Origin: Candidatus Heimdallarchaeota archaeon
Lineage (GTDB): Archaea > Asgardarchaeota > Heimdallarchaeia > Heimdallarchaeales > Heimdallarchaeaceae
Length of the DNA stretch: 64,000 bases
Assembly (NCBI GenBank): GCA_030603365.1
Contig: JAUVXV010000013.1
Location: 45,433-109,432 of the forward strand
Direction of reading: 5' to 3'
Under the pieces are notes generated by a model that saw nothing but the letters and a program-made list of their open reading frames with translations, ran no database searches and was not told the origin of the DNA. Below are positions 450 through 44,047 of the stretch, piece after piece (within the stretch, counting starts at the first letter, position 1; every line of letters begins with the position of its first letter). The translations under genes were made by a program, and so were the position numbers.

Positions 450-581
450 TTTTATCACATAATTGTGCTATGAGGCTTTTTCAAAAACTTATATTATAAA
501 TATAATGATTTTTGCGAATGTCCAAGATTGTTTTTGTTCTACAAAGATTTATTATCCTATCAAATAATTAGTTCCTTGCAA

Positions 582-1733
582 ATGGTTATAGTACGTGGAA
601 ACGCTTTAATTGGACCAGATTTGGAGTTTATTGAAGGCATAAGCATTCATGTGGATGAAAACGGTATAATCACAAATATATCCAAGAAACAAAGCTCTGC
701 TAAATATGTTTTACCTCCTTCTTATGTAATTGTTCCAGGTTTTATTAATGCCCATACCCATGTTGCTGATGCTTTTATTAAGGATTATACTTATGGTTTA
801 TCGCTTGAAGAAGCGGTTGGTCCGAATGGGATAAAACATTCCAAACTAAGATTAAGTTCATTGCAAGATAAAGCTGAGAGTATAAGAAATTCTTTGGAAT
901 TATTAATAAAAAATGGTTATACTACCTTTGTTGATTTCAGAGAAGAAGGTATAGAAGGAATTAGACAATTAAAAGAGGAATTGGATGACTTTCCGATAAG
1001 AGGTTTAATATTAGGACGAAAACATGGCGAAGATGATTTATTAGATGTTTTTGAACAAGCTGATGGGCTCGGTTTTTCTGATGTTTTTTCAATTAACAAT
1101 GAATCTATGACTCAAACAAAGATTCTGAAAGAAAATAACCCTGAGAAAATCATTGCTATTCACGCATCTGAGTCAATGGAAACTATTTCCGAATCCCTTA
1201 CTCAGTTTGGTAAACCAGATATAGAAAAAATATGTGAGTATCCGTTTTTTGATTTTGTTGTTCATGCAACATACTCAAATGAAAACGATCTATCTCTTCT
1301 AAAGAAAAACGACATAAATGTAATCACTTGTCCTATTTCAGCCCTCTATCACGGTTTGAAATTTCCTCCTATTGCGTTAATGCTCAAGAGCAAAGTTTTA
1401 CTTGGTTTAGGGACTGATAACACTTTTTGCTGTAACCCTGACCCATTTAGACTTATGGCATTCACATTGTATTCTGCACGTAGTAATTATCAAAATGTAT
1501 CACCTAAAGAAATTCTAAAAACTGTTACAGTTAATCCTGGATTGATTGTTAAAAGACAGATAGGTCAAATTACTGAAGGGTATAGTGGAGATTTCATCGG
1601 AATTGATTTGAATAGTCCTAACACTAGATATTCAAAGGATGTTTATTCAGCTTTGACTATGCGCGCAGAACCTAGTGATATAGGCTTTCAAATGTATAAA
1701 GGAAAGGTTGTAAAATGGAAAGACCAAAAATAA
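582..1733 (+). CDS. metal-dependent amidohydrolase of the TRZ/ATZ (MtaD/DadD/guanine-deaminase-like) subfamily
   Basis: N-terminal MVIVRGNALIG...GIITNI beta-sandwich start. HxH motif in PGFINAHTHVADAF, HASE motif in IAIHASES, and the GTDN..NPDPF catalytic Asp region. Start chosen at the in-frame ATG at 582 rather than the TTG at 528. Confidence 0.7.
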   Translation: MVIVRGNALIGPDLEFIEGISIHVDENGIITNISKKQSSAKYVLPPSYVIVPGFINAHTHVADAFIKDYTYGLSLEEAVGPNGIKHSKLRLSSLQDKAESIRNSLELLIKNGYTTFVDFREEGIEGIRQLKEELDDFPIRGLILGRKHGEDDLLDVFEQADGLGFSDVFSINNESMTQTKILKENNPEKIIAIHASESMETISESLTQFGKPDIEKICEYPFFDFVVHATYSNENDLSLLKKNDINVITCPISALYHGLKFPPIALMLKSKVLLGLGTDNTFCCNPDPFRLMAFTLYSARSNYQNVSPKEILKTVTVNPGLIVKRQIGQITEGYSGDFIGIDLNSPNTRYSKDVYSALTMRAEPSDIGFQMYKGKVVKWKDQK

Positions 1734-2386
1734 TTGTTAATGTAGCTTGCTCTTTAGATGGTGTAATCGCGTCTAATAAAGGAGCTTTAATCCTGTCGAC
1801 TACAGAAGATTGGTTAAGAGTACATGAACTCAGAAATTCAGTGGATGCGATTCTTGTTGGAATAAATACTATTGAGAAAGATGATTCTTTGCTAACCATT
1901 CGTTATGTGACACCAAAAACACCTCACCCTTTGCGTGTTATATTAGATTCTACGTGTAAAATACCTCTTACAGCAAGAGTTTTGACGAATTTAGAAATAT
2001 ATCCTACTTTGATAGTAACCTCTAAAGAATCTTCTGATGAAAAAATCAAAAAAATAGAAGAACTTGGGGCTCAAGTCCTTAAGATAACTAATAAACAACA
2101 TCCCAACTATCTTAGCTTAACTGAAATCCTTCAGAAATTAAAGCAAGAATTCAATATAGAAAGACTATTGGTTGAAGGTGGTTCGAAAATAATTACCGAG
2201 TTTCTCAAGTGTAAGTTAGTGGACACTATGCACATATTTTATGCAGCATTATTTGCTGGAACAATTAATGCTAAACTTTTGTATGATGAAAAGGTTGTAG
2301 TTAATGTGGCTGATACACTAGATTTTGAATTAGAAAAAGTAGAACAATTTGAGGAAGGCTTTGTAGTCACCATTAAACCAAAGTAG
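1715..2386 (+). CDS. RibD C-terminal-domain reductase (2,5-diamino-6-ribosylamino-4(3H)-pyrimidinone 5-phosphate reductase-like, archaeal ArfC/RibG type)
   Basis: VNVACSLDGVIAS, DAILVGINTIEKDDSLLTIR, RVILDS and LLVEGGSKI motifs typical of the RibD_C / DHFR-like fold. Confidence 0.75.
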   Translation: MERPKIIVNVACSLDGVIASNKGALILSTTEDWLRVHELRNSVDAILVGINTIEKDDSLLTIRYVTPKTPHPLRVILDSTCKIPLTARVLTNLEIYPTLIVTSKESSDEKIKKIEELGAQVLKITNKQHPNYLSLTEILQKLKQEFNIERLLVEGGSKIITEFLKCKLVDTMHIFYAALFAGTINAKLLYDEKVVVNVADTLDFELEKVEQFEEGFVVTIKPK

Positions 2387-2395
2387 TTGAGAGGT

Positions 2396-3490
2396 ATGGA
2401 AACAGAAAATATTCTCTCCTTATTGCAGAATAATAAGGAAGAACTGTTCCTAAAGGCTAAAGAAAAAAAAGGGCAATTCTATAACAACATTGTAACATTT
2501 TCGCGAAATGTGTTTGTGCCTGTAACTCGTCAATGCAGAAATAGATGTGGATATTGTGGCTTTGTGTCAGATGATGCAAGTAGTTGGATTACTCCAGACA
2601 AATATCAAATTTTGCTTAAGAAATCTAAAGATGCAAAATGCAAAGAAATTCTGCTCACTTTAGGAGAAAAACCTGAAGAGAAATATCAAACAGCAAAAGA
2701 TTTCTTACTTAGTCATAATTTTGAATCTACTGTAGACTATGTTAATTCCTTCTGTGAAACTGCATTAGATAATTTTCTTCTCCCGCATTCAAATTTAGGA
2801 ATTTTATCTTTCGAGGAACTTAAACTCCTCAAGGAAACAAATGCTAGTATGGGACTTATGCTTGAAACAAGTAGTTCACGTTTGATGGAAGCAGGAGGAG
2901 CTCACCACTATTCACCAGGAAAGGATCCATCTGTACGTCTAGAAACACTTTCAAATGCTGGAAAACTAAAGATTCCATTTACTTCTGGAATTTTAATTGG
3001 AATAGGAGAATCTTGGGCTGAAAGAATAGAGTCTCTTCAAACAATTGAGAAAATTTACAAGAAATACAATAATATACAAGAGGTTATTGTACAGAATTTT
3101 AATCCCCAGCCTAATACTCCTATGTCTGATTGGTTATCTCCCACTGATGAAGAGATTTTACTAACTTTGTCTATAGCTCGCATCGTCTTATCTCCAACAG
3201 TTAATATTCAAATTCCACCTAATCTAAACAAAGACAGAATTGTGGAAGCTTTAGATTCAGGCGCTAATGATGTTGGTGGTATTTCTCCCCTAACTATTGA
3301 CTATATTAATCCTAACATGGATTGGCATGAAGAAAAAATGCTGTATAAGCAATTGGGAGATTATAATTATGAATTAATAGAAAGATTACCCGTTTATCCT
3401 CCTTATGAAAAATATTTAAACACTCGATTGAGAGAGATAATTGAGGATTATCACCACAATGAAGAAACTCTCTACTCCAAAAATCGATGA
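2396..3490 (+). CDS. cofG: FO synthase subunit CofG (7,8-didemethyl-8-hydroxy-5-deazariboflavin synthase subunit 1), radical SAM
   Basis: Radical SAM CxxxCxxC in VTRQCRNRCGYCGF. Length and downstream partner are typical of split archaeal FO synthase. Start is uncertain: ATG 2396 or TTG 2387. Confidence 0.8.
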   Translation: METENILSLLQNNKEELFLKAKEKKGQFYNNIVTFSRNVFVPVTRQCRNRCGYCGFVSDDASSWITPDKYQILLKKSKDAKCKEILLTLGEKPEEKYQTAKDFLLSHNFESTVDYVNSFCETALDNFLLPHSNLGILSFEELKLLKETNASMGLMLETSSSRLMEAGGAHHYSPGKDPSVRLETLSNAGKLKIPFTSGILIGIGESWAERIESLQTIEKIYKKYNNIQEVIVQNFNPQPNTPMSDWLSPTDEEILLTLSIARIVLSPTVNIQIPPNLNKDRIVEALDSGANDVGGISPLTIDYINPNMDWHEEKMLYKQLGDYNYELIERLPVYPPYEKYLNTRLREIIEDYHHNEETLYSKNR

Positions 3491-3491
3491 A

Positions 3492-4583
3492 ATGTGTGAT
3501 TTAAGCTCGTTTAGAGCAACACATCAAGATGAAATTAAAGAAATAACTCAAATGCTTAAAAAAAGAGGTGGAGAGTTATGGATACAGACTTCAGTAGCAG
3601 ATGAATTACGTACCCAACAATCTGGAGACGAAGTCACCTTTGTTGTTAATCAGAATATCAATTTCACTCAACACTGCATAGGATCTTGTCGTTTCTGTTC
3701 TTATAGTATAAAACCTGGAACTGTCAAAGATAAACCTACAAGGATGTCATTGGATGAGATAAGAATTGAAGCAGAAAAAGCGGTAACAAGAGGTTGTACT
3801 GAGTTATGTATTCAAGGTGGTTTAGATTCAGAACTAGATTATGAGTTCTATATTAACTTACTAGAAACAATAAAATCAGTTTCTTCTAACCTTCACATCC
3901 ACGGTTTTTCTCCTTCAGAAATTGCTTTTATGTCCCAAATCTCTGAACTAACTGTAGAAGATGTTTTCAAAGATTTAATGTCACATGGATTGGATTCTTT
4001 TCCAGGAACAGCTGCAGAAATTTTGGTTGATGAAGTAAGAAGGAAAATCTGTCCAGAGAAGATATCAACTAATCAATGGGTCAATATAGTTTTACTTGGA
4101 CATTCTTTAGGATTAAAATCAACAGCAACAATGATGTACGGACATATTGAAACATATCAAGAAGAAGCTGAACATCTGGCTATTCTCAAATATATTCAAA
4201 GCAATTCAAAGGGTTTTACAGAATTCATTCCTCTAACTTTTGTTTATCCAAATACAGTATTATACAAATATTTAGGAGCAAGACCTAGTAGTACAGGAAT
4301 GCATGATTTAGCTCTATTTAGTACGGCAAGATTATATTTAGGAGAATCTTTCTCCAATATTCAGGCTTCTTGGGTTAAACTAGGACCTAAACTAGCTCAA
4401 ATATCTTTGAATGCTGGTGTCAATGATTTTGGTGGAACTTTATTTACAGAGAATATAACAAAGAGTGCAGGGGGAACTTTTGGAGAAGAAAAAAGCATCG
4501 AGGAATTTGTTGACTTAATTAGAGATGCGGGTAGAATACCTGTTCAACGAGATACTATGTATAGTAAGTTAAATACCTATTAA
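3492..4583 (+). CDS. cofH: FO synthase subunit CofH (subunit 2), radical SAM
   Basis: CxxxCxxC in HCIGSCRFCSY. The ATG at 3492 sits one base after the cofG stop at 3488-3490, so the two are translationally coupled. The ORF-track start at 3441 would overlap cofG by 50 nt. Confidence 0.8.
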   Translation: MCDLSSFRATHQDEIKEITQMLKKRGGELWIQTSVADELRTQQSGDEVTFVVNQNINFTQHCIGSCRFCSYSIKPGTVKDKPTRMSLDEIRIEAEKAVTRGCTELCIQGGLDSELDYEFYINLLETIKSVSSNLHIHGFSPSEIAFMSQISELTVEDVFKDLMSHGLDSFPGTAAEILVDEVRRKICPEKISTNQWVNIVLLGHSLGLKSTATMMYGHIETYQEEAEHLAILKYIQSNSKGFTEFIPLTFVYPNTVLYKYLGARPSSTGMHDLALFSTARLYLGESFSNIQASWVKLGPKLAQISLNAGVNDFGGTLFTENITKSAGGTFGEEKSIEEFVDLIRDAGRIPVQRDTMYSKLNTY

Positions 4584-4634
4584 GGATAAGCCAAGTTTTA
4601 AATTAAATGAAGTGCTTTGTTTTATAGGGGTTCA

Positions 4635-5480
4635 ATGAGTTCTAAAAAACGATCTTCTCCAGAGATTTGGAAGTCTCTTTCTAATAAAATTCGAAGAGAT
4701 TTATTGTGTTTTATTGGAGAGAAGAACGTTGCTTCTTTTACTGAGATTCAAGAAAGATTCCAAATGAAAGTGGGGACACTCTACCATCATCTAGATACAT
4801 TGGGCGCTCTTCTAACTCAGGATTCATCAAAACGTTATTTATTAACTGAAAAAGGAAAGAGATCTTATGCATTGATTGAAGAAGAAATCGATGTGTCTGC
4901 TCCTAGTCAGCAATTGTTTGGCGCTCTTTCTTTTCTCCATATCATATTTTTGAGACCAGTCTATCGTTTTATAAAGACAGATTCTATAAGATCTCTGGGT
5001 TTTTCATTAATCCTCTTGATAGGTTTAACAGTTGCAACCTATTTTCTTTCTGCATCACCCATTTTTCTATTTCCTTCTTTCATATCTCCTGATTTTCTTG
5101 CTCCAATATTCTTTCTAGCTTCAGTTGCAATAACCTACGCTATTTGTGAAGTATTTGTATCTCTAGTTTTTAAGCGGAAAAATGACAAATTGGCTCTCTT
5201 TCAAAGTGTTATAATTATTCAAATAGTTTTGATAATTCCTACAATTATACTTGCATTTGTTTTTGGGTATGAATATCCTGTATCATTTCTGGATTTGAAT
5301 GTCTGGTTCATAATTGTTGTATTTCTTTTCCAATTACTGTGTGTTGGTTTATTAATTGAAGCTATCATTATTATCAAAGAATTAAGATTCGAGAAAGCTG
5401 GCGTTCTTGCCTTGTTTGTTGTTTTTATCGTAAATGCTCTCGCTTTTGTAATAATGAACTTACTGGAGGTTACGATTTGA
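4635..5480 (+). CDS. membrane-tethered winged-helix transcription regulator-like protein
   Basis: N-terminal about 90 aa resemble an ArsR/PadR-type wHTH (FTEIQERFQMKVGTLYHHLDTL). The remainder is 5-6 hydrophobic TM segments. Confidence 0.45.
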   Translation: MSSKKRSSPEIWKSLSNKIRRDLLCFIGEKNVASFTEIQERFQMKVGTLYHHLDTLGALLTQDSSKRYLLTEKGKRSYALIEEEIDVSAPSQQLFGALSFLHIIFLRPVYRFIKTDSIRSLGFSLILLIGLTVATYFLSASPIFLFPSFISPDFLAPIFFLASVAITYAICEVFVSLVFKRKNDKLALFQSVIIIQIVLIIPTIILAFVFGYEYPVSFLDLNVWFIIVVFLFQLLCVGLLIEAIIIIKELRFEKAGVLALFVVFIVNALAFVIMNLLEVTI

Positions 5481-5577: not shown

Positions 5578-8500
5578 ATGAGTGCCAATAACCTCCAACA
5601 ATCAAAGAATAGAATAGCCCCACCATTTCTAAAAATCTTTTTGGTACTCATCCTTTTCCTCTCTTCCATAGTTCTAATTCCTACATCCTTGGGGTTCAGT
5701 GATCTCAATCAAAATCCGCAAGACCCAATCAGCTATACACCTTCTCTTCATGTAAGTGAAGAATTACCTTTATTTCATGAAAAGATAAATGTGATTATTG
5801 GAAAAAATGATTCATTAATAAGCGTACTTGAGCTAAATGGTGGTGAGATTAGAACTCCATTCGATCTATCGAGTTCTGAACTTGTTTTGGTAAATCAACT
5901 TGACTTTATCGTTAACAATCAGTCTTCCTTCTCAAAAATTTGGACAAATCCATTATGGCAATTTCCTGATGGTTTAGTAATTAGATTAACTGCAAGAACT
6001 CAAGATTATAACCGTTTAATCTCTATTTATCGTTTTGTTGATAATATTATCCGAAATTTCTATGGTGTAACTCCTGGAGTTTTCAATTTACGTTCTTTAT
6101 CTTCTACAGATACTGTTATCTCACTTGTTGCACCTATCTCCTATACACAAGCATTAGAAATTTTTCAGGAAATTTTTGTTTTTGAAGATCAAGTAAATAA
6201 CGGAAACACAATCTCACTGATGGGTGATTTATTGAGTCAATCACCAGCTGTCTATGCTTTTGGATATTCAATACAAAAAAGATTGGGGAGTATAAGTCGT
6301 TTAACCAAGAGTGTTCTAATAGGTGTAGAGAATAAAATCCCACACAATGGAGACCAAAGATCATTCAATTTAGAAGATGTTTTTGGAGCAGCATTAATTC
6401 CAAATTCCCATGCTCTTCTTACAAACTTTGCTTTTCATGTTCCTTTTCTAGTAAATATTACATATATGAACCCTCTTCCTGATAACATGGGAGGTACAGC
6501 AACTGGATCTTTTGAATGGATCTTGAAGTATCTAACTATAATCTCACATCCATCCTTCAACTTAGATGTGATTTACTATCCTTTCACCTATGATGATTTC
6601 ATTTTTCCCAGAATCACTGTATCTAACTCTTATTCTGACTTCAAACTGGAAAATGATGGTGTTCTAAATATGACGTATACAATCAACAATACTGGAACTG
6701 ATACAGCTTTTAATACCTCTATAGTTCTTCCCATTCCATTTGAATTAGGGGTTTTTGTACAGGAGGGGCTTGTTATACCAGTGTTAAAAGAAACAATCCA
6801 GATTAATGAGAGCTTTACTTCCTATGTAGAACTCAAAATAAGTTATAGTGTGTATTCATTCAGTATCCCTATTATCGATATTCAAGGCTGGTATGAAAAT
6901 TCTTCGACATTGATGCCAGAAAGATGGTTGGATGAGAATATTATCGAATTAAACGAATATGTTTCAATTCATTGCTCTAATGGCATATCTTCAGATTTAC
7001 TCTTCGCAATTGAAACACATATTATACCCATTTTGGAAATTGGGATAGATGAGATAATGGCTGATTTTGGTTATTATGAACCTTTAATTGTTGATTCATT
7101 GAAAACAGCTGCAACTGAATCCTATGAAATTGCTTTCGAAGCTTTTTATGAGAATAAAACAATCTTCCAATTCAGTTCTTCAGATTTCATATATAATTCC
7201 AATCCGTACGGTGGGTATTTGGAACATGTTATCCCTCAAATAGAAGTAGATGAGACTCTAGAAACTTCATGGACAATTTTTAATATTCCAACCTCAGCTG
7301 ATAGATATGGTGGTTTTTCTTGGGATTTGAAGACAGTCAGTTATGATGAGTATATAGTTTTTCAAACTTCAGAACGTGACTATAAGGATTTTATGTTAAG
7401 TGTTTTTGCTGCAATAGATTCTGCGGGAAGATTTCTAAGTGTGCATGACCCTATAACAGGTGTTTTTGTTTCCTTAGGAAGTAGATACCAATATGCAGAT
7501 TCTTTAGGTAGAAAGTATTTTGGGTTAACAAATGGTCTTAATCTTCAAATAGGTGATGATGAAGCGGTTTTAGAAAGCATCCTAAATATGAATAGTACGA
7601 TCTATCGCGTAGGTGATGAAGTTCCATTCAGTCTAGATATTACTAATTTGGGGACAATAGAGGCTTATGATATTCACGTGGATATAGTTAATTTGAAGCT
7701 AAATTATTTGTGGCTTCCAACTGATGTGGTTGTTGTAAAATCATTTGACATTGATCAGATCAACGCAGGGGAACATATTAAAATAGATTTTTCAGCATAT
7801 GCAAATAGCTATATAGGGTTGAATACTTATGTCGCAATTATAAGTTTCATTTCAGATAAAGATCAGGTTGCTACAGAGGTTATTGATCTTTGGACTGGTC
7901 AACCAGTACCTTGGGAATATAGTGGCGAAACCACAAATGTAATTACCTCTACTTTAACTTTCGGAGTTTTATTTCCCCCATTATTACTGGAAGATGAACT
8001 AAGACCAAGTTTTCCACTTCCTGAAATTACTACTTCTAACAATTACGAAATAGATCAAGAAAAAAGAGAACTACTATTGGAATATGAAATAACCAATACA
8101 GGTCTTTCGTCAACAGATCTCACCTTATATCAAGTGTTTCCAAAGGGTCAAGGAGATCTTGAATATCTAAATTGCTCACTAATTCAAGGTGACACAATTA
8201 TCACATTAGAACCTGTTATATCTACTAAAGGAGATTATTATTTTATTAACTACGTAAATATTACTTTAGAACCAGGAGACAAAATATTGGTTGAAGCTCG
8301 TCTGAGCAATATTTCAGAAGATTTTACCATTCCGCCGATAATCATAAAATACTATTCCATTTATCAAATTCATACAACTGATTTTGCAACCACTAACAGT
8401 CAAACTGAAGTGAATACAGCTAATCCTGCAAGTCTCTATGTGAAAGCATCCCCTTCTACTGTTATTGAAGGGGGTCAAAACCAATTCATATGGTCATCCT

Positions 8501-8652
8501 TCTCTCCAGTTATTCATATAAATCTTCCTTTCTCAAGTGAGTATGAACGAATAATCTTCTCATCCCTACCCTGGCTATATCCTGTTATAAGCACAGCGAT
8601 TTTAGGAGGCTTGATCCTCATAGCAATGATAATTTCTAGAACCCGAAAATAG
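5578..8652 (+). CDS. large secreted/cell-surface protein (1024 aa) with N-terminal signal/TM and C-terminal TM anchor
   Basis: Hydrophobic N-terminus FLKIFLVLILFLSSIVLIP. C-terminal AILGGLILIAMIISRTRK (TM plus basic tail). No catalytic motif recognised. Confidence 0.5.
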   Translation: MSANNLQQSKNRIAPPFLKIFLVLILFLSSIVLIPTSLGFSDLNQNPQDPISYTPSLHVSEELPLFHEKINVIIGKNDSLISVLELNGGEIRTPFDLSSSELVLVNQLDFIVNNQSSFSKIWTNPLWQFPDGLVIRLTARTQDYNRLISIYRFVDNIIRNFYGVTPGVFNLRSLSSTDTVISLVAPISYTQALEIFQEIFVFEDQVNNGNTISLMGDLLSQSPAVYAFGYSIQKRLGSISRLTKSVLIGVENKIPHNGDQRSFNLEDVFGAALIPNSHALLTNFAFHVPFLVNITYMNPLPDNMGGTATGSFEWILKYLTIISHPSFNLDVIYYPFTYDDFIFPRITVSNSYSDFKLENDGVLNMTYTINNTGTDTAFNTSIVLPIPFELGVFVQEGLVIPVLKETIQINESFTSYVELKISYSVYSFSIPIIDIQGWYENSSTLMPERWLDENIIELNEYVSIHCSNGISSDLLFAIETHIIPILEIGIDEIMADFGYYEPLIVDSLKTAATESYEIAFEAFYENKTIFQFSSSDFIYNSNPYGGYLEHVIPQIEVDETLETSWTIFNIPTSADRYGGFSWDLKTVSYDEYIVFQTSERDYKDFMLSVFAAIDSAGRFLSVHDPITGVFVSLGSRYQYADSLGRKYFGLTNGLNLQIGDDEAVLESILNMNSTIYRVGDEVPFSLDITNLGTIEAYDIHVDIVNLKLNYLWLPTDVVVVKSFDIDQINAGEHIKIDFSAYANSYIGLNTYVAIISFISDKDQVATEVIDLWTGQPVPWEYSGETTNVITSTLTFGVLFPPLLLEDELRPSFPLPEITTSNNYEIDQEKRELLLEYEITNTGLSSTDLTLYQVFPKGQGDLEYLNCSLIQGDTIITLEPVISTKGDYYFINYVNITLEPGDKILVEARLSNISEDFTIPPIIIKYYSIYQIHTTDFATTNSQTEVNTANPASLYVKASPSTVIEGGQNQFIWSSFSPVIHINLPFSSEYERIIFSSLPWLYPVISTAILGGLILIAMIISRTRK

Positions 8653-12161: not shown

Positions 12162-12275
12162 AACTGAACGAATTCATAATCAAGTTTTAATACTCCTATT
12201 TGAAACTTGATGTGGTTCAAAACGCAAAATTATCTCGTAAAGAATAAAGATAAAAAAGGATAGTTGGGGGATAAA

Positions 12276-13187
12276 ATGCAGAAGGAAGAATTATTCGAGA
12301 TTCTTGATAGTTATCTTTTTAGTAATTCTCGTCTTGATGAAAAGAAACTGAGTGAAAAAATCCAGATAAGTCAGAAGAATATAAAGGACTTTTTCTCTCA
12401 GAAATCAGAGGAAATGGGTTTTATTAGAGATGGAAGTTCTATTTTCTTTGCACATGAAATTATAAGAGAAAATATTGAAGACATAAATGAATCCTTTTGG
12501 AATTGGTATCTTCGTTGTGTCCCCAGTTATAGTGATCTTGCATGGGAAGAAGGAGCAGCAATTGCTGATACCTCAAGAATAAAAATAATTCCCTTTAGAA
12601 CATCTTCCAAGAGTTTTATCCAATCATTTACAGCTCGAATATTAATTCTAGGTGAAGAAAAAACAGGTAAACAATCATTTGTTTTTGCTCTTTCAGGAGA
12701 TTCACTGAATAGACCAGCTCCGGGTGTATTTTCAGGAAAAATCTCAAGATTTTTAGATGAATTTGAGACTGATTTTGAGAGTATAATTTTGGATATTCCG
12801 CCAGATTCTCCACTTTGGATTTATGCAAAAGCTTCATTTGGAGTTATCCTTACATATGATCTTTCGGAACCACAGACTTTTGAAAAATTACTATATTGGC
12901 TAGATGTTTTCATGGATTCATATTCTTATGAATTATGTCCTCCCATAATGCTATTGGGAACAAAAATGGATTTACTTACTCAAGAAGAAATTACTGCATC
13001 TAGAAGAAAAGCAGAAATATTGAGAGAGCAGATAGAACAAGAATATGGAACGATAGCCTTGAATGAACTAATCTCCTTAACAGAAGGGGGTAATGTTTTA
13101 AACTCATTTGAGAATTTTGCTAAAACAGTTCGTCAATGGTATCAAATTATTAAACAAGAATATCTTGATGATAATCCGATGGCTTAG
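12276..13187 (+). CDS. divergent small-GTPase-like protein with about 120 aa N-terminal extension and a degenerate G3
   Basis: P-loop-like ILILGEEKTGKQS; G4-like LLGTKMDL (TKxD). The G3 position reads ILDIPPD instead of DxxGQ. ATG 12276 is preceded by GGGGG; the ORF track starts at TTG 12264. Confidence 0.45.
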   Translation: MQKEELFEILDSYLFSNSRLDEKKLSEKIQISQKNIKDFFSQKSEEMGFIRDGSSIFFAHEIIRENIEDINESFWNWYLRCVPSYSDLAWEEGAAIADTSRIKIIPFRTSSKSFIQSFTARILILGEEKTGKQSFVFALSGDSLNRPAPGVFSGKISRFLDEFETDFESIILDIPPDSPLWIYAKASFGVILTYDLSEPQTFEKLLYWLDVFMDSYSYELCPPIMLLGTKMDLLTQEEITASRRKAEILREQIEQEYGTIALNELISLTEGGNVLNSFENFAKTVRQWYQIIKQEYLDDNPMA

Positions 13188-17517: not shown

Positions 17518-18279
17518 ATGAACAAAAATCATCTATTAGATAATATGTCACTCGAACCAAAAAGAGCTTACAAAATTGTTCTTATAGGTGATCCCGAAGT
17601 AGGTAAAACTTCAATTAGAAGAAAGTACATGGGAAAGTCATTTAGAGCTGACTATCTAAAAACACTAGGAGCAGATTTTGCAGCTCAAAAAGTTAATGTG
17701 GAAGGAGAATCAGTTCTTTTAACAATTTGGGATTTAGCAGGTCAATCTATTTTTCATGGAATGAGATCTTCCTTTTATCATGGTTGTAAATGTGCATTAG
17801 TTGTTTTTGATGTTACCAACCCCCAAACCTTAGAAAATTGTTATAAATGGGCTGAAGAGGCAGCTAACTTCGCTAAAAGTTCCATGAAAGAGATTTATCT
17901 TATAGGAAATAAAATCGATTTAGTAGATGATCGTTTAGTCAACCATGACGCAATAGCGAGCATCGCTGAGAAATTCAGAATAGCTTTCAAATTTCCTGTA
18001 GAAATCTATGAAACTTCAGCTTTAACAGGAGAAAATATAATTGAACTCTTCGAACATATGAGTAGAAGATTAATCATTGGTGACGAAACTAGAGAAGAGC
18101 AACTAGAAGTGCAATCTGAAAATGAGCAACAGGTAAATGAAGAAAAAATCATTGAAGAGGGAGAAAAAACAATAAGTAATGAAACCATAATTAAGATGCT
18201 TGAAGAACTGGAAAATAGAATAAACAACATTACTACTGACTTAAGTGAAATAAAGAAACAACTAAAAAATGTTGATTAA
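17518..18279 (+). CDS. Rab/Ras-like small GTPase with C-terminal coiled-coil extension
   Basis: G1 GDPEVGKTS, switch I T in YLKTLG, G3 WDLAGQ, G4 GNKIDL, G5 ETSALTG. The C-terminal about 70 aa are acidic coiled-coil with no CAAX. Confidence 0.85.
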   Translation: MNKNHLLDNMSLEPKRAYKIVLIGDPEVGKTSIRRKYMGKSFRADYLKTLGADFAAQKVNVEGESVLLTIWDLAGQSIFHGMRSSFYHGCKCALVVFDVTNPQTLENCYKWAEEAANFAKSSMKEIYLIGNKIDLVDDRLVNHDAIASIAEKFRIAFKFPVEIYETSALTGENIIELFEHMSRRLIIGDETREEQLEVQSENEQQVNEEKIIEEGEKTISNETIIKMLEELENRINNITTDLSEIKKQLKNVD

Positions 18280-19696: not shown

Positions 19697-19714
19697 AATT
19701 AGGTGAGCTTAAAT

Positions 19715-21703
19715 ATGAAAAATAAATCAGCGATTTTCGCATTACTTATAGCCACTAGCTTACTCACAATGAGTGTTTTTAATGCAAACGTACAAGTACA
19801 AGGTGCTGACGCTATCGCCAACATAGTCTTCAAGACTAACGGTGGTGGTGTAAGACCTGACTATGGTTTGTTCATTGCACAATATCTACGTGATTTAGGT
19901 ATAGAAGTAGAAGTAAAAGTCGAAGAATGGTCCGTATTCGTAGGAACATTGATTCTGACACACGATTTCGATATCGGTGTAGTCGGTTTATCCGGTGGTG
20001 GAGCATCTCCAGACATGAGAGATGTGTATGCCGAAGGCGGATCATTGAACCTATTCGGGTTAGGTCCAGATTTACCATATGGTAATCAAAGCGAACAAAT
20101 GCAAGATATCGGTGTAACTATTACTGATCTTGATGCCAGACAACAACATTATTACGATTGGCAACAACTAATGATGGATAAACTTATCCCAATATTACCA
20201 TTGTTTTCCCCCAGATCTTATGTAGCAACATGGGCAAATACAATGGGATATGAAGGTAGATGGGGAATAGTTGATTCCTTGCCATATATGTACTATGATG
20301 GCTATCACGAAGGTCAAGTATCACTTACCGAATTCACCATTGCAGACGCAAATTGGAGAGAACTCAACCCATTGTTCACAGATGATACATCAAGTTCATT
20401 CATCTGGAATTTAATGTCTGAACCAATTCTAACATTCAGTCCAGATCTTGCACCTCTAAAAACTGGTCTAGTTATCGATTGGGAACAAATTGACGAATTC
20501 CATTGGAAATTCTATATGAGAGATGATGTCTATTGGAACCCATCCTACAACGTTACTGGAAGAACAGCAAACTCTGACCCACTAAGTGCTATACCAACTA
20601 GTGAATTGATGCTAGGTTTGAAAGCTGGAGATTACAGCGATGGTACTAACCAACAAGTTACTGCAAAAGATGCCGTATTTACCTATCTAGTTTGGTCAAA
20701 CGCAGTAGTCAGTGAAAGTACAACTTATCATGATTGGATATCAGAATGTTATGTAGATCCAGTAAATGAATTAGCTTTCCACGTTCATATAGATGGTAAT
20801 CCAGACACTCCTGATGTAGAACAATATGTAGACTTTTGGGCAAGACTCCCATGGGATATTATGCCAGAATTCTTCTTGAACTCAACCGACCCAACTGTAA
20901 CATACACAGATGGTGGAATTGAGTGTATTGGTCTATATGACTTAATGATAAACACACCTGAGTGGGTAACATTCAGTACCTCTGCATTTGGTTGTGGTAA
21001 GTATATGTTAGATTACTACATCAGAAACTCTGTTACAATTCTACAAAAGAGCCCATTCTGGTTAGGTATAGGCGCAATCGACGATACTCCTCAAGATTTA
21101 GACTTCGATACATTTATCATTCGTGTTATTCCTGATTCCTCTGCTGAATTAGCAGAATTCAAAGCAGGAAAATTGGATTGGACTGGTCTAACAGCATTCC
21201 CAGCAGAAAGAAAACAAATGCAAGCAGATCCAAGATTTGATGTGCAAACATTTATTACTAGTTCTATGACCTTCATGTTCTTCAATCTACGAAGACCATT
21301 TGTTGGTGGTTCAGATAACTTCGATTATCTTGACACTGTTGGTAAAGAGGAATATACAGTAGGTATAGCAGTACGTAAAGCAATTTGTTATGCGATTGAC
21401 AGAGCTGAGATGAACCAAGTACTACATGATGGTGAGTATCTGATAGCACACAGCGTTCTGTATCCATCCACAGCGTTCTATTACTACAACGACATCATAA
21501 AATACAATTATGATATCCGTTCCGCTTTTGAATGGTTAGGTGCTGCAGGTTATCCTGTACCAGATTTACCACCGGAAACTACTCCAGTGACATCTACTCC
21601 ATCAATACCAGTTGAAACTACTCCAACACCATTCCCATTGTTTGGTGTGATTGCTGCTATCGGTGCTGCATCCGCAATTGCATTCTATCGCAGAAGAAAA
21701 TAA
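19715..21703 (+). CDS. family-5 (OppA/DppA-like) solute-binding protein, apparently circularly permuted, with PGF-CTERM-like anchor; paralog 1
   Basis: Family-5 signature-like IDWEQIDEFHWKFYMRDDVYWNPS sits at residue ~255. The N-terminal ~200 aa resemble the C-terminal lobe of OppA/DppA (EEWSVFVGTL..DFDIGVVGLSGGGASPDMRD). C-terminus PLFGVIAAIGAASAIAFYRRRK. SD AGGTGA precedes ATG 19715. Confidence 0.65.
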   Translation: MKNKSAIFALLIATSLLTMSVFNANVQVQGADAIANIVFKTNGGGVRPDYGLFIAQYLRDLGIEVEVKVEEWSVFVGTLILTHDFDIGVVGLSGGGASPDMRDVYAEGGSLNLFGLGPDLPYGNQSEQMQDIGVTITDLDARQQHYYDWQQLMMDKLIPILPLFSPRSYVATWANTMGYEGRWGIVDSLPYMYYDGYHEGQVSLTEFTIADANWRELNPLFTDDTSSSFIWNLMSEPILTFSPDLAPLKTGLVIDWEQIDEFHWKFYMRDDVYWNPSYNVTGRTANSDPLSAIPTSELMLGLKAGDYSDGTNQQVTAKDAVFTYLVWSNAVVSESTTYHDWISECYVDPVNELAFHVHIDGNPDTPDVEQYVDFWARLPWDIMPEFFLNSTDPTVTYTDGGIECIGLYDLMINTPEWVTFSTSAFGCGKYMLDYYIRNSVTILQKSPFWLGIGAIDDTPQDLDFDTFIIRVIPDSSAELAEFKAGKLDWTGLTAFPAERKQMQADPRFDVQTFITSSMTFMFFNLRRPFVGGSDNFDYLDTVGKEEYTVGIAVRKAICYAIDRAEMNQVLHDGEYLIAHSVLYPSTAFYYYNDIIKYNYDIRSAFEWLGAAGYPVPDLPPETTPVTSTPSIPVETTPTPFPLFGVIAAIGAASAIAFYRRRK

Positions 21704-24655: not shown

Positions 24656-25912
24656 GTGACAGCAGAAGAGAAAGATCCTACCTATAAGGATTGGCCGTTT
24701 AGGAAACGGTTGAAATTCCAAATCACCAAATACTGGAAATATACAATAAAATGGTTTCCTTTTGCTCTCATAATAGGTGCTATTAGTGGGACTTTAATGG
24801 CTGTATTTACCAGTCTTATTGTCAATCTTGAGATAGGTCTCCATGTTATCCCTGTTTATATAAAATATCCTATTATTGGTGGTATTACTTCTTTATTGTT
24901 ATATTTTGGTTACAAAGAAGTGTATGGGGCAGGTATATCTCATGTTCTCTCTCACAAAAACACAACAACTCCTCTAAAAGCTAGAGGGTTGGTTACAAAG
25001 TTTTTTGCTAGTGTTCTAACATTAGGTGTTGGAGCACCAGCTGGAAGAGAAGGACCAGCGTTAACTCTTGGGAGTACTGCTGCGTATGTTATTGGTGATA
25101 AAATAGGTATGAGTAAAGAAGATGAAATGCATGCAATTACAATAGGAGCAGCAGCTTGTACAGCAGCTGTTTTTGGTGCTCCACTCGGTGGTACTGTGTT
25201 TGCTTCTGAAGTTCCTTACAAAAGAGATCTGGATGAAACAGTATTTCTTCCTGCACTTGTAGCAAGTGCGATTTCATTTCTAGTTTATGATTCTCTTCTA
25301 AACTTAATTCAAAAAATACCATTTCTTGAAATAGTCGGTTTCCCAAATCTCGTGATTCCTATAATACTCTCTAATGCTATGGCATTCATAATATCAATGG
25401 ATTTCAGCTTATATAGAGGACAAATTCAGAGTAAGGAAGTAATTTTACGACGAACGATACAATATACAGATGTCCTTGAAACCTTAACTGTAAGAGAATC
25501 AATGCAAGATTCTTTTGTAACAGTAAATCAAGCTGATAAACTAGAAGAAGTTTTTCAGCTTCTATATTTACATAAAATCAGTTCTCTGTCTGTTGTAAAT
25601 GATCAAAATAATCTAGTAGGAATGATAAGTGCAATAGATTTTCAACGTGGTTTTTCAAAAGGAAATACTTTAGTAAAAGATGTGATGACGAAAGAGGTAA
25701 TTACGGCATTTCCAGATGAAAGTTTATCGTTAATCTTTGATAGACTAACAACTTATAGCATTGAATGTTTACCTGTTATCGAAAGAGAGCAACCTCAAAG
25801 GATACTAGGAATATTGTCCTTTAGAGATATCGAATCAAGATATGAAACAGCGTTAACTAAAATTCATAGTAAAAGAAAACTAACCATAGAGGAAATAGAA
25901 GATGATTTTTAA
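24656..25912 (+). CDS. ClC-family (chloride channel/transporter)-like protein: one ClC repeat plus C-terminal CBS pair
   Basis: GAPAGREGPALTLG (ClC GREGP motif), upstream GAGISHV (GSGIP-like), and TIGAAACTAAVFGAPLGGTVFASE resembling ClC helix G/H. Two CBS-like segments at the C-terminus. Only about 260 aa of TM region. GTG start. Confidence 0.55.
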   Translation: MTAEEKDPTYKDWPFRKRLKFQITKYWKYTIKWFPFALIIGAISGTLMAVFTSLIVNLEIGLHVIPVYIKYPIIGGITSLLLYFGYKEVYGAGISHVLSHKNTTTPLKARGLVTKFFASVLTLGVGAPAGREGPALTLGSTAAYVIGDKIGMSKEDEMHAITIGAAACTAAVFGAPLGGTVFASEVPYKRDLDETVFLPALVASAISFLVYDSLLNLIQKIPFLEIVGFPNLVIPIILSNAMAFIISMDFSLYRGQIQSKEVILRRTIQYTDVLETLTVRESMQDSFVTVNQADKLEEVFQLLYLHKISSLSVVNDQNNLVGMISAIDFQRGFSKGNTLVKDVMTKEVITAFPDESLSLIFDRLTTYSIECLPVIEREQPQRILGILSFRDIESRYETALTKIHSKRKLTIEEIEDDF

Positions 25913-26669
25913 AACAGAACATTCTGCAATCAAAGATCTTGAGGTTCTGGATTTTAAAGAAGCAATATGGTTAACTCATTGGTATCCTCAAATTTGTCAA
26001 TTTTTGGGAATTGATCCTAAAGAAGATAAAGATGCTTTACTGAATGCTTTAGCAATAACTTCCAGTAATATTACTCCAGATGTTCTGAAGCAATTAATGC
26101 TAGATAAAAGCGTTTTTGCAATAGCTCCTGGAATTTATCTTGAAGATGAACTGGATGAATATCTTAAACGATATAATCGAAAAGAAGATATTCTGATATC
26201 AGCTGATGGAGCTACTTCCTATTTAATTTCTCAAAATATCATACCCCATATTATAGTAACCGACCTCGATGGTAATGTAGAAGACCAATTAACTGCCCAG
26301 AAGAAAGGATCGATTCTTCTGATACATGTTCATGGGGATAATTATCATAAAATTCAGAAATACTTTGAAGATATCTCAAATGGAAGATTTTTATTAACTA
26401 CTCAAATCCAACCTTTGCCAGGATCTTTTAATTTCTATGGTTTTACAGATGGCGATAGAATAGTGTGTCTCTCAACAGTGATGTCAGCTAAGGAGATATT
26501 TCTCATAGGTTATGATTTTGGTTCTGAGATAGGAAAGTATTCAAAGGATGGTTCAATTGATGATGAACTCAAAGCTAGAAAAATGAAAAAATTTATTATA
26601 GGAAAATCAGTAATAAACTGGTGTTCTAATACTGGTCAATCTATCTCATTTCTAATAAATCGTGAGTAA
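25902..26669 (+). CDS. MptE-like 6-hydroxymethyl-7,8-dihydropterin pyrophosphokinase (DUF115 family)
   Basis: ISADGATSYL, IIVTDLDGN and IHVHGDN motifs recalled for the archaeal HPPK/DUF115 family. Adjacent to a PTPS-like gene. Confidence 0.55.
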   Translation: MIFKTEHSAIKDLEVLDFKEAIWLTHWYPQICQFLGIDPKEDKDALLNALAITSSNITPDVLKQLMLDKSVFAIAPGIYLEDELDEYLKRYNRKEDILISADGATSYLISQNIIPHIIVTDLDGNVEDQLTAQKKGSILLIHVHGDNYHKIQKYFEDISNGRFLLTTQIQPLPGSFNFYGFTDGDRIVCLSTVMSAKEIFLIGYDFGSEIGKYSKDGSIDDELKARKMKKFIIGKSVINWCSNTGQSISFLINRE

Positions 26670-26672: not shown

Positions 26673-27164
26673 TTATCCATGAACTGGAAATAATTCTGTT
26701 GTTACTCCCTGACCATCATATTCATACACAGTCACTGTAACTTGGCTAATGTTTTCTTGCTTTATTTCCTCATTCTTAGCCAACATTTTCACGAAATAAT
26801 GACTCAATTCTTCTACAGTAGTATTTTCAATTGGTAAGATAACAACATCAGATTTAGGGAACTCATATTCTTTGTCAATATGTGGTATATTAACAATAAG
26901 TTGATCTCCTTTCTCAGTAATGGTCATCAAGTGGTTTTTAGAAGGTATGAGAACTACATGATCAAGAGTGTCAACAATGGGCTTCATAATACGTTTTATT
27001 GTATGGAAATTGATTACCATATTATCTTTACCCTGAGTTCCATAAACGTTTACTAAAATTCTATAATTATGACCATGAAGAGGTTCATTAAAATTTTCTC
27101 CAATTACAAAGTGTGCACATGAAAAAGTTAGATAATCCCTATCCAAGAACAAATCATAAGTCAT
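26673..27164 (-). CDS. 6-pyruvoyl-tetrahydropterin synthase family protein (PTPS-III/QueD-like)
   Basis: SCAHFVIGENFNEPLHGHNYRILV (Cys plus HGH zinc/catalytic motif), about 160 aa. Confidence 0.7.
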   Translation of the reverse strand: MTYDLFLDRDYLTFSCAHFVIGENFNEPLHGHNYRILVNVYGTQGKDNMVINFHTIKRIMKPIVDTLDHVVLIPSKNHLMTITEKGDQLIVNIPHIDKEYEFPKSDVVILPIENTTVEELSHYFVKMLAKNEEIKQENISQVTVTVYEYDGQGVTTELFPVHG

Positions 27165-28899: not shown

Positions 28900-30950
28900 A
28901 GAGTTTCAAGAAAACAAAAAAGAAAAAGAAAAAGAGAATTAAAACTTATTTTCTTCTGCGATAGAATGCAATTGCAGATGCAGCACCGATAGCAGCAATT
29001 ATACCAAACAATGGGAGTGGTGACTCGGTAGTTTGTTGAGGTTCTGTTGGAGTAGATACCTCTGGAGTAGTTTCCGGTGGTAAATCTGGTACAGGATAAC
29101 CTGCAGCACCTAACCATTCAAAAGCGGAACGGATATCATAATTGTATTTTATGATGTCGTTGTAGTAATAGAACGCTGTGTATGGATACAGAACGCTGTG
29201 AGCAACAAGATATTCTCCATCATGAAGAACCTGATTCATCTCAGCTCTGTCGATAGCATAATTCATCGCTTTACGTACTGCTATACCTACTGTATATTCT
29301 TCTTTACCAACAGTGTCAAGATAAACGAAGTTATCTGCACCGCCAACAAAAGGACGACGTAGGTTGTAGAACATATAACTGAAACCTGCTGCAATAAATG
29401 TTTGCACATTAAATCTTGGATCTGCTTGCATTTGTTTTCTTTCTGCTGGGAATGCTGTTAAACCAGTCCAATCCAATTTTCCTGCTTTGAATTCTGCTAA
29501 TTCAGCAGAGGAATCAGGAATAACACGAATGATAAATGAATCGAAGTCTAAATCTTGAGAAGTTCCATCTATTACTCCTATACCTAACCAGAATGGGCTC
29601 TTTTGTAGAACTGTTACTGAGTTTCTGATGTAGTAATCTAACATATACTTGCCACAGCCAAATGCAGAGGTACTGAATGTAACCCATTGTTCGGTATTAA
29701 GCATATCAGCGTATATACCAACACATTCAACCCCACCATCAGTATATGATACGGTTGGGTCGGTTGAGTTCAAGAAGAATTCTGGCATAATATTCCATGG
29801 GAGTCTTGCCCAAAAGTCTACATAATGCTCAATTTCAGGAGTGTCTGGATTACCATCTATATGAACGTGGAAAGCTAATTCATTTACTGGATCTACATAA
29901 CATTCTGATATCCAATCATGATAAGTTGTACTTTCACTAGTAATTGGGTTTGACCAAACTAGATAGGTAAATACGGCATCTTTAGCAGTAACTTGTTGGT
30001 TAGTACCATCGCTGTATTCTCCAAATTTCAAGCCTTGCATCAATTCACCAGTTGGTATAGCACTTAAAGGATCAGAGTTTGCTGTTCTTCCAGTGACGTT
30101 GTAGGATGGGTTCCAATAGACATCATCTCTCAAATAGAATTTGAAGTGGAATTCGTCAATTTGTTCCCAATCATAAACCAAACCAGTTTTTAGAGGTGCA
30201 AGATCTGGACTATATGTCATGATATTTTCAGCCATTAAATTCCAGATGAATGAACTTGATGTATCATCTGTGAACAATGGGTTGAGTTCTCTCCAGTTTG
30301 CATCTGCAAGATTGAATTCGGTAAGTGATACTTGACCTTCATGATAGCCATCATAGTACATGTAAGGTAAGGAATCAACTATTCCCCATCTGCCTTCATA
30401 TCCCTCAGTATTTGCCCATGTTGCTACATAGGATCTGGGGGCATAAAGAGGCAGTATTGGTACAATCTTGTCCATCATCAGCTGTTGCCAGTCGTAATAA
30501 TGTTGTTGTCTGGCATCAACATCAGTTATTGTTACACCGATATCTTGCATAATTTCAGATTGATTACAATATGGTATATCTGGACCTAGTTGATAACAAT
30601 TCAGTGAACCGTCTTCGGTATATATGTCTCTCATATCTGGAGAAGCTCCTCCTCCTGATAAACCGACTACACCGATGTCGTAATCGTGTGTCAGAATCAA
30701 TGTTCCTACGAATACGGACCATTCTTCAACCTTTACTTCTACTTCTATACCTATATCACGTAGATATTGTGCAATGAACAGGCCGTAATCAGGTCTTACG
30801 CCACCACCGTTAGTCTTGAAGACTAAGTTTGCGATGGGCTCAACACCTTGAACCATAAAAGAAGAATTACTTCCACTCATTACAAGAAGATTTGCTAGGA
30901 TGAAGATTGTAAAATATATTGCTTTTTTTTTCATATAAGCTCGCCTAACT
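28900..30950 (-). repeat. copy 2 of the inverted duplication
   Basis: See copy 1. Confidence 0.8.
28946..30934 (-). CDS. family-5 solute-binding protein, permuted, PGF-CTERM-like anchor; paralog 2 (inverted near-identical copy of 19715..21703)
   Basis: Protein about 85-90 percent identical to paralog 1 over its length. Same RBS context: TTAGGCGAGCTTATATG here versus TTAGGTGAGCTTAAATATG in copy 1. ATG at 30934. Confidence 0.65.
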   Translation of the reverse strand: MKKKAIYFTIFILANLLVMSGSNSSFMVQGVEPIANLVFKTNGGGVRPDYGLFIAQYLRDIGIEVEVKVEEWSVFVGTLILTHDYDIGVVGLSGGGASPDMRDIYTEDGSLNCYQLGPDIPYCNQSEIMQDIGVTITDVDARQQHYYDWQQLMMDKIVPILPLYAPRSYVATWANTEGYEGRWGIVDSLPYMYYDGYHEGQVSLTEFNLADANWRELNPLFTDDTSSSFIWNLMAENIMTYSPDLAPLKTGLVYDWEQIDEFHFKFYLRDDVYWNPSYNVTGRTANSDPLSAIPTGELMQGLKFGEYSDGTNQQVTAKDAVFTYLVWSNPITSESTTYHDWISECYVDPVNELAFHVHIDGNPDTPEIEHYVDFWARLPWNIMPEFFLNSTDPTVSYTDGGVECVGIYADMLNTEQWVTFSTSAFGCGKYMLDYYIRNSVTVLQKSPFWLGIGVIDGTSQDLDFDSFIIRVIPDSSAELAEFKAGKLDWTGLTAFPAERKQMQADPRFNVQTFIAAGFSYMFYNLRRPFVGGADNFVYLDTVGKEEYTVGIAVRKAMNYAIDRAEMNQVLHDGEYLVAHSVLYPYTAFYYYNDIIKYNYDIRSAFEWLGAAGYPVPDLPPETTPEVSTPTEPQQTTESPLPLFGIIAAIGAASAIAFYRRRK

Positions 30951-31569
30951 ATTCTTTTATTATGTGAATATTTTCTCACACTATGAGACTGACCTTTGAG
31001 GCCTTTATTATTATTTTGGTCACTTTTCGCTAGAACCCCCGAAACATTAATAAGTGCATGTTTCGCTCGACGCGTATTTTTTAAAATTTGTAGTAATCAT
31101 CTCAAGCATTCTATTTGATGGAAAGCTGTTCTTTGATGGCTATTGACGGAAAATAGAGTTCCTTTTAGGAGCACTCAACTACTTTTCAACTGATCTACAT
31201 AAGTGTCTTTCAAGCCATTTAATTATGTCCACTGATTCCAGAAAGAGTAATTTGAGACGAGAGGGGAAAGTAATCTTGTTTCCAATTTTAGTTTTTGTTA
31301 CTGTTACTTACATCTTTAGTGATGGTCATTCTCCGATATATAAAAGACAGAAAGGGTAAAAAAGATGATATCTTTGAAATAGAATTTTACCCTTCAAATG
31401 GTAATGATGTTGTCTTCTCCCCTGACAGATGATGCTTACATATAAGGAATTTTTTTAGAACTGGTGTCTTTGCTTTTTTTCTTTCCCTAGAGATTATTAA
31501 TAAAACCCGTCATAAGTTACATAAAGATTAATTATCTCCTAATACCAAGTGATTTTGGAATAAACAAGG

Positions 31570-41065: not shown

Positions 41066-41161
41066 TTATTTTCCTCCTTTAAATTTTTATTATATGTGAT
41101 ACATACTAATACATATTATATATATGTGTATGTGTTGGCAAATCTTGCCTATAAACATATT

Positions 41162-44016: not shown

Positions 44017-44047
44017 GAAAATATCATGATGAGAATTAGTCCTTTCA

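Follow-up and report, generated by a model that had tools for sequence, protein, structure and literature searches.

Organization of the amidohydrolase–arfC–cofG–cofH cluster

The stretch of Candidatus Heimdallarchaeota DNA analysed here (64,000 nucleotides of contig JAUVXV010000013.1, positions 45,433–109,432; hereafter the window) has a G+C content of about 33% and carries, between positions 582 and 4583, four consecutive genes on the plus strand that encode an amidohydrolase, the pyrimidine nucleotide reductase ArfC, and CofG and CofH, the two radical S-adenosylmethionine (SAM) subunits of 7,8-didemethyl-8-hydroxy-5-deazariboflavin (FO) synthase. All four open reading frames (ORFs) are found in the ORF list of the window at the coordinates given below, and Pfam and NCBIfam confirmed the order amidohydrolase, RibD-C reductase, cofG and cofH reported in a preliminary description of this DNA. 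We propose that these genes are likely to form an operon leading from a diaminopyrimidine nucleotide to FO, with the amidohydrolase as a predicted pyrimidine deaminase.

The amidohydrolase gene (582–1733) codes for a protein of 383 residues in which the Pfam scan detected Amidohydro_1 (1.2e-28) and Amidohydro_3 only. The mechanical start of its ORF is a TTG at position 528; ATG 582, the start chosen in the preliminary description, is the right one because the homologues, also of 383 residues, begin at that methionine. The next gene (1715–2386) encodes ArfC, a stand-alone reductase of 223 residues with RibD_C as its sole Pfam domain (4.5e-42), which scores 162 bits with TIGR01508 (cut-off 186) and 161 bits with TIGR00227 (cut-off 150). 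No cytidine/deoxycytidylate deaminase zinc-binding domain was seen in the Pfam scan of either ArfC or the amidohydrolase. CofG (2387–3490) reaches 411 bits with NF004884 (cut-off 209) and 390 bits with TIGR03550, and CofH (3441–4583), which contains the Pfam domains CofH_C and Radical_SAM, reaches 427 bits with TIGR03551 (cut-off 374). Both translations contain the CxxxCxxC radical-SAM motif, as CRNRCGYC in CofG and CIGSCRFC in CofH, so that the two subunits of FO synthase are each recognized by an equivalog model above its cut-off and by the motif.

The four genes are tightly packed. The amidohydrolase and ArfC ORFs overlap by 19 nucleotides, those of ArfC and CofG abut (0 nucleotides), and those of CofG and CofH share up to 50 nucleotides unless CofH starts at ATG 3459 or ATG 3492, one of which is probably the true start. 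This packing is as expected for a single transcription unit, and the four genes may therefore be co-transcribed. They are preceded by an AT-rich divergent intergenic spacer (459–581, plus strand), in which a TATA-like run, cttatattataaatataatg, could be read at about 488–507, and which is a probable promoter of the operon. Neither Rfam nor tRNA scanning gave a match in the window, and thus no flavin mononucleotide (FMN) riboswitch was detected in it. Further genes of the riboflavin or FO pathways were absent among the 20 other window ORFs scanned.

Family placement of the amidohydrolase

Only one curated hidden Markov model (HMM), NF005552 (PRK07213, 'chlorohydrolase'), matched the amidohydrolase strongly, with 258 bits (cut-off 294) over residues 1–371 of 383 and profile positions 2–376 of 382. 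The next best model, PRK08393, gave 91 bits (cut-off 617). The protein was also scored with the models for DadD (NF005557, 64.6 bits; cut-off 522), guanine deaminase (TIGR02967, 51.8 bits; cut-off 375.4), MtaD (NF012037, 44.7 bits; cut-off 779) and 8-oxoguanine deaminase (NF006055, 42.9 bits; cut-off 532), the four comparisons suggested in the preliminary description. All of these fall far under their cut-offs and none fits, and the four identities were rejected. By these scores the amidohydrolase appears to belong to a separate PRK07213/MJ0699 family, and its earlier assignment to an MtaD/DadD/guanine-deaminase subfamily was imprecise; no clustering with cytosine or guanine deaminases was seen in the HMM comparison.

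The PRK07213 scores of other family members decrease from 619 bits for the Methanococcus maripaludis protein and 589 bits for MJ0699 of Methanocaldococcus jannaschii to 446 bits in Methanobacteriaceae, 376 bits in a Bathyarchaeon, 336 bits in Nitrosopumilus, 303 bits in Halorussus and 247 bits in a Promethearchaeote. Methanococcales evidently form the centre of the model, and the Asgard members lie just below its cut-off but are still matched end to end. MJ0699 (Q58110, AAB98692), which was recovered through a Methanocaldococcaceae match by protein search and cluster look-up, aligns with the window protein over its full length (residues 2–367) with 31% identity (E 6e-48). A haloarchaeal family member is 34% identical to MJ0699, the same value as that published for HVO_2483 (Pfeiffer et al. 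2021, PMC8305020), and fits HVO_2483. The family, called 'PyrD' in SEED-based papers, covers a length class of about 345–440 residues, and the closest database relatives of the window protein are labelled Heimdallarchaeota. The window protein has its best HMM, its length class, its invariant residues and its partner ArfC in common with the MJ0699/HVO_2483 family. It stands apart within this family in the score of the Asgard members (247–258 bits versus 294), for which reason their RefSeq-style name is the generic 'amidohydrolase family protein', and in the ArfC–CofG–CofH partner set, which was seen solely in loci labelled Asgard or 'uncultured archaeon'.

Some family records bear other names. 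Two ANME/Methanosarcinales proteins (P0172 and P0226) labelled '5'-deoxyadenosine deaminase' match only PRK07213 at E<=1e-25, with 285–293 bits. A DadD-like paralogue in locus L066 gives about 290 bits with PRK06038 and PRK07228, under the cut-offs of both, and since it shows the opposite pattern, the models can tell the two types apart. The labels '5'-deoxyadenosine deaminase' and 'adenosine deaminase' on family members are, by this model comparison, probably wrong.

PRK07213-type proteins are also present on contigs binned as bacterial, namely those of a Spirochaetales (L038), a Leptolinea (L066) and a Deferrimicrobium (P0081) metagenome-assembled genome (MAG), with no riboflavin genes nearby. 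They could reflect mis-binning or horizontal transfer.

Conserved residues and predicted structure

The motifs listed in the preliminary description (HxH, HxxE and GTD-Asp) are present in the amidohydrolase as His58-x-His60, His194-x-x-Glu197 and Gly-Thr-Asp279-Asn, together with His228, and are invariant across the family. An alignment of 60 family members contains 21 invariant columns. In a 19-sequence cross-phylum alignment that takes in MJ0699, the M. maripaludis protein and a haloarchaeal member, His58, His60, Asp63, Lys85, Arg120, Glu121, Arg146, His194, Glu197, His228, Cys250, Asp279, Asn280 and Arg361 are invariant. The combination of HxH, HxxE, a further His and an Asp marks the mononuclear deaminases within the amidohydrolase superfamily, and the elements occupy the positions of the COG0402-type layout, with HxH, HxxE, His and Asp following strands 1, 5, 6 and 8, respectively.

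The AlphaFold2 model of the protein (predicted local distance difference test score, pLDDT, 96.4; predicted template modelling score, pTM, 0.94) has a COG0402-type fold, consisting of a (beta/alpha)8 barrel and a beta-sandwich. Residues Arg120/Glu121, Arg146, His194, His228, Cys250 and Asp279 are placed at or just past the ends of successive predicted strands, where the active sites of triosephosphate isomerase (TIM) barrels are located. In this model the pocket is most likely lined by the Arg/Glu/Arg set that is specific to the family. The invariant basic residues Lys85, Arg120 and Arg146 are candidates for holding a ribityl 5'-phosphate.

The top 45 Foldseek matches in the PDB are all COG0402-type proteins, with 14–20% identity and query-normalised TM-scores of 0.78–0.88, and include an Oleispira amidohydrolase, AtzA, Pa3170, Tm0936, the isocytosine deaminase Vcz, TrzN and guanine deaminases. 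No solved structure of a PRK07213/MJ0699 family member was found in the PDB by sequence or fold comparison. The isocytosine and guanine deaminases among the matches show, by analogy, a precedent for deamination of a 2-amino-4-oxopyrimidine ring on the same scaffold. The guanine, 8-oxoguanine and isocytosine deaminases (2UZ9, 6OHB and 7WW2) thus resemble the window protein in their fold and in the deamination proposed here; unlike it, they act on the free base, where the proposed substrate of the window family is a ribityl phosphate, and they share only 15–18% identity with it, the window protein being about 50–90 residues shorter. In the window family the invariant Asp63 lies three residues past the HxH motif, a position at which guanine deaminases presumably carry a Gln.

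Gene neighbourhood in related archaea

One genome per species was scanned with the family profile, and 80 loci were collected from many archaeal lineages, spanning Asgard archaea, Thermoproteota (including Nitrososphaeria and Bathyarchaeia) and euryarchaeal-type lineages, the taxon names being those of the database records. ORFs were called in these loci with mechanical starts, ArfC, CofG and CofH were located with the window proteins, and the neighbours within 5 kb were clustered, the large clusters being named by NCBIfam and Pfam. Among the neighbours thus identified were the guanosine triphosphate (GTP) cyclohydrolase IIa/III ArfA (NF002587), RibB, RibH, RibE and RibC, the last of which is the archaeal riboflavin synthase resembling 6,7-dimethyl-8-ribityllumazine (DMRL) synthase.

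In 62 of the 75 loci with enough downstream sequence, the gene that comes next on the same strand encodes ArfC, and in 55 of these 62 the mechanical ORFs of the two genes overlap. ArfA lies directly upstream of the amidohydrolase in 49 of 76 loci, and 71 of 80 loci have one or more riboflavin or FO genes within 5 kb. CofG and CofH are encoded downstream in 11 of 59 loci, every one of which bears the label Asgard or 'uncultured archaeon'. It is the reductase ArfC, together with other riboflavin enzymes, that stays with the amidohydrolase across phyla, and not the radical-SAM pair: the linkage pointed out in the preliminary description is kept in relatives as far as amidohydrolase and reductase are concerned, while cofG and cofH are not general partners.

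The order RibE–RibB–RibH–ArfA–amidohydrolase–ArfC is found in most loci of Nitrososphaeria and in several from other Thermoproteota. Apart from the deformylase and the phosphatase, all riboflavin enzymes are encoded in these operons; the amidohydrolase fills the slot of the deaminase, and no cytidine-deaminase-fold protein is encoded within them. The reductase present there, like that of the window, has no deaminase domain, and in these operons no protein other than the amidohydrolase is a candidate for the deaminase step. Variants of the type RibB–RibC–RibH–ArfA–amidohydrolase, with or without ArfC, are seen in Bathyarchaeia, one Jord locus and a few others, and in two archaeal MAG contigs (L031 and L042) RibB and RibC are located downstream of the amidohydrolase.

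The order amidohydrolase–ArfC–CofG–CofH is shared by Heimdall, Loki/Promethearchaeota and Hermod MAGs, and the four-gene arrangement of the window is not a chance one. ArfA is absent from these Asgard operons. In one Promethearchaeota contig (L048), CofG comes straight after the amidohydrolase at the contig end, with no ArfC between them, an arrangement compatible both with a deaminase of the pathway and with an enzyme for salvage of the radical-SAM by-product.

In nine Loki/Hermod loci (L013, L024, L027, L037, L043, L046, L047, L051 and L058), the GTP cyclohydrolase MptA (TIGR00294, 239 bits) is encoded about 1 kb upstream of and divergently from the four genes; in L011 it is on the same strand. 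Beyond MptA in the Loki/Hermod loci lie the genes of a ubiquitin-like system, namely a ThiF-like E1, a UQ_con E2 and a JAB protease.

Predicted pathway and published assignments

In the proposed scheme, a single operon would carry a GTP-derived pyrimidine intermediate to the deazaflavin chromophore FO. ArfC would convert 2,5-diamino-6-ribosylamino-4(3H)-pyrimidinone 5'-phosphate to the ribitylamino compound, following the archaeal and fungal order of steps. The predicted substrate of the amidohydrolase is this 2,5-diamino-6-ribitylamino-4(3H)-pyrimidinone 5'-phosphate, from which the 2-amino group would be lost by hydrolysis. A single metal ion would be held by His58, His60, His194 and Asp279, with Glu197 and His228 acting as the proton shuttle, roles assigned here by the layout of related deaminases. 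The product would be 5-amino-6-ribitylamino-uracil 5'-phosphate, whose phosphate would then be removed by a phosphatase encoded outside the operon. CofH and CofG would finally condense the dephosphorylated product with tyrosine to yield FO, and 5-amino-6-ribitylamino-uracil would also supply lumazine synthase for riboflavin. The proposed reaction is that of fungal Rib2, in which deamination follows reduction, and is equivalent to the step of the N-terminal domain of bacterial RibD; the two differ from the window protein in having a cytidine-deaminase fold instead of a TIM-barrel amidohydrolase.

The assignment of a pyrimidine deaminase to this family has been published, and the candidate put forward in the preliminary description, although supported by the present data, is a rediscovery of predictions made in 2010, 2017 and 2021. 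Archaea lack the RibD deaminase domain, and clustering on the chromosome together with co-occurrence led to the proposal of 'PyrD' as the candidate archaeal pyrimidine deaminase (Rodionova et al. 2017, PMC5397151), a proposal that, as cited there, is credited to Osterman, Overbeek and Rodionov (2010). HVO_2483 and MJ0699 were later named as the pyrimidine deaminase candidate that 'requires experimental confirmation', in a study that lists ArfB as an open gap in haloarchaea also (Pfeiffer et al. 2021, PMC8305020). A review from 2026 on the enzymes of riboflavin synthesis does not name an archaeal deaminase.

Downstream of the gene of the M. maripaludis orthologue (L081, 6001–7119) come a beta-CASP gene and the four-gene F420-reducing hydrogenase (fru) operon, in this order. 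In a preprint this operon corresponds to MMP_RS07120–07135, and from the gene order and the spacing of the locus tags we infer that the orthologue is MMP_RS07110. The preprint reports MMP_RS07110 as essential, in keeping with a step on which both flavins and F420 depend, and treats the protein as an 'adenosine deaminase', a name that is annotation only.

Alternative functions

Several points weigh against the pyrimidine deaminase assignment. The end-to-end match of the window protein is 36 bits under the curated cut-off of NF005552, and the Loki relatives are likewise under it (247 versus 294 bits). Comparison with solved structures, by sequence or by fold, singles out no substrate, the matches, all with 13–20% identity, ranking nearly equally whatever substrate they use. 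The 80 loci are the best matches to a Heimdall-centred profile and 43 of them come from Nitrososphaeria, so that the counts stand for a handful of independent lineages and not for 62 separate events, and the methanogen, haloarchaeal and Altiarchaeales loci show no riboflavin neighbour of the amidohydrolase. No biochemical or genetic test of a family member was found in the literature searched, most subscription journals lying outside it, and the assignment of the family is a prediction based on context and motifs.

The preliminary description had considered two functions as coherent with the neighbourhood, and of these the deaminase of the pathway is favoured by gene order, family and motifs. 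The other, a DadD/MtaD-type deaminase that would clear the 5'-deoxyadenosine (or methylthioadenosine, MTA, or S-adenosylhomocysteine, SAH) arising from CofG and CofH and so detoxify a by-product, is highly improbable. It would account for the fact that the amidohydrolase gene of the window, like that of Asgard relatives, shares an operon with two radical-SAM genes, and for the direct succession of amidohydrolase and CofG in L048; moreover, DadD (MJ1541) and MtaD (Tm0936, Pa3170 and Cv1032) belong to the same superfamily branch and have the metal and catalytic residues and the fold in common with the window protein (query-normalised TM-score 0.79–0.87), and '5'-deoxyadenosine deaminase' is the label of some family records. 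The identity is, however, only 15–19%, the DadD and MtaD scores lie far below their cut-offs, the DadD-labelled P0172 and P0226 are PRK07213 proteins by their matches, and the DadD-like paralogue of L066 shows a different pattern of models. The partners of the window family are riboflavin genes and not genes of methionine/SAM salvage: CofG and CofH follow far less often than ArfC (11 of 59 versus 62 of 75 loci), and in the operons of most members ArfC and ArfA are the partners with no radical-SAM gene nearby. Trp75 (adenine-stacking), Glu84 (ribose-binding), Arg136 and Arg148, the ligand contacts of Tm0936, all align with variable positions of the family, with Trp75 facing Ala78 and Glu84 facing Lys88 of the window protein, an argument of moderate weight in a pairwise HMMER alignment of about 19% identity. 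MJ1541 is a characterised DadD of M. jannaschii and distinct from MJ0699, which also counts against this function.

The amidohydrolase might instead, or in addition, catalyse another hydrolytic step, that of the formamide hydrolase (ArfB) acting after GTP cyclohydrolase III. Its gene is directly behind that of ArfA in 49 of 76 loci, the ArfA product requires deformylation, no creatininase-type ArfB was seen in the neighbourhoods of the ArfA–amidohydrolase operons, amide hydrolysis is within the reach of amidohydrolase-superfamily enzymes, and ArfB is among the gaps listed for haloarchaea (PMC8305020). Nevertheless this is unlikely: HxxE, the strand-6 His and the strand-8 Asp, the signature of the COG0402 deaminase branch, are invariant here, M. 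jannaschii keeps MJ0699 although, according to the literature, it has a characterised ArfB, and the Asgard operons pair the amidohydrolase with ArfC and FO synthase and have no ArfA. That one enzyme performs both deformylation and deamination in the lineages with ArfA–amidohydrolase–ArfC is very unlikely, although two archaeal pathway gaps would be closed at once if it did. A general deaminase of purines, pterins or nucleosides (adenosine, guanine, isocytosine or pterin), linked to ArfC only through co-regulation of GTP-derived cofactor pathways, is quite unlikely too. It could be suspected from the 'adenosine deaminase' of the preprint on the M. maripaludis orthologue, from the guanine and isocytosine deaminases among the structural neighbours and from the adjacent MptA, an enzyme of pterin synthesis, in the Loki and Hermod loci; but the first is a label, the guanine and 8-oxoguanine deaminase models score far too low, and the overlapping amidohydrolase–ArfC pair is kept across archaeal phyla inside complete riboflavin operons, which argues for a step of the pathway and not for loose co-regulation.

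Flanking genes and other features of the window

Upstream, the spacer is bounded by a minus-strand gene with a GTP_EFTU domain, which ends at 458 and is syntenic in loci L002 and L003. Downstream, a plus-strand gene (4617–5480) that begins 33 nucleotides past CofH encodes an ArsR/SmtB-like helix-turn-helix (HTH) protein with a multi-pass membrane C-terminus, with weak matches to HTH_20, HTH_5 and DUF7347. A counterpart with 68% identity occupies the same position in the Heimdall locus L002, and the operons of Loki and Hermod showed none in the neighbourhood comparison; it is uncertain whether this gene belongs to the operon. It is followed by a gene (5578–8652, plus strand) for a protein of 1024 residues, membrane-bound or secreted from the look of its sequence, which is also syntenic in the Heimdall MAG of L002 (12079–16087, a span that includes the HTH gene), with 46% identity.

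A convergent gene pair encodes an MptE-like 6-hydroxymethylpterin diphosphokinase (25902–26669, plus strand) and a 6-pyruvoyl tetrahydropterin synthase (PTPS)/COG0720 protein (26673–27164, minus strand), a second GTP-derived cofactor module in the window, in this case for pterins. The minus-strand genes at 35438–39103 encode an FAD-linked oxidase and the beta and alpha subunits of an electron transfer flavoprotein (ETF), the latter with an N-terminal 2x[4Fe-4S] ferredoxin domain, and may constitute an electron-bifurcating-type ETF module. Two genes for Ras/Roc-family small GTPases, typical of Asgard genomes, lie at 12264–13187 and 17518–18279, both on the plus strand.

Several genes of the window are duplicated. 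Two genes for proteins of about 670 residues with 85% identity (19703–21703, plus strand, and 28946–30979, minus strand) flank a 7-kb segment in inverted orientation and may represent a recent inverted duplication; both proteins start with an apparent signal-peptide-like sequence. Two DEAD-box helicase genes (46522–47799 and 62231–63490, both plus) are 65% identical, and two paralogues of about 640 residues (49452–51395 and 52159–54084, both plus) are 35% identical. Five small paralogous ORFs of 124–160 residues, with 29–49% mutual identity, are spread over 18 kb (40628–41065 on the minus strand; 42550–42978, 45385–45867, 45962–46336 and 58531–59001 on the plus strand). In the gaps at 41066–42549 and 42979–44225, no ORF of at least 90 residues and no tRNA or Rfam match was found.

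Significance of the predicted Asgard operon

The proposed deaminase function of the amidohydrolase is well supported by its context, and also by its family and its catalytic motifs, but it had already been published. What is new is the Asgard member of the family and the Asgard-type operon that joins the amidohydrolase–ArfC pair to FO synthase; the HTH-membrane gene conserved downstream in Heimdall is a small addition of the same kind. The Asgard candidate stays just under the threshold of automatic annotation, and hence it had gone unnamed.

Deamination is a remaining gap in the archaeal synthesis of riboflavin and F420. If the predicted function is correct, a TIM-barrel amidohydrolase would replace in archaea the cytidine-deaminase-fold enzyme of bacteria and fungi, a clean case of non-orthologous displacement, and its wiring to FO synthase in Heimdall, Loki and Hermod archaea would mark the amidohydrolase–ArfC pair as the unit that supplies 5-amino-6-ribitylamino-uracil.

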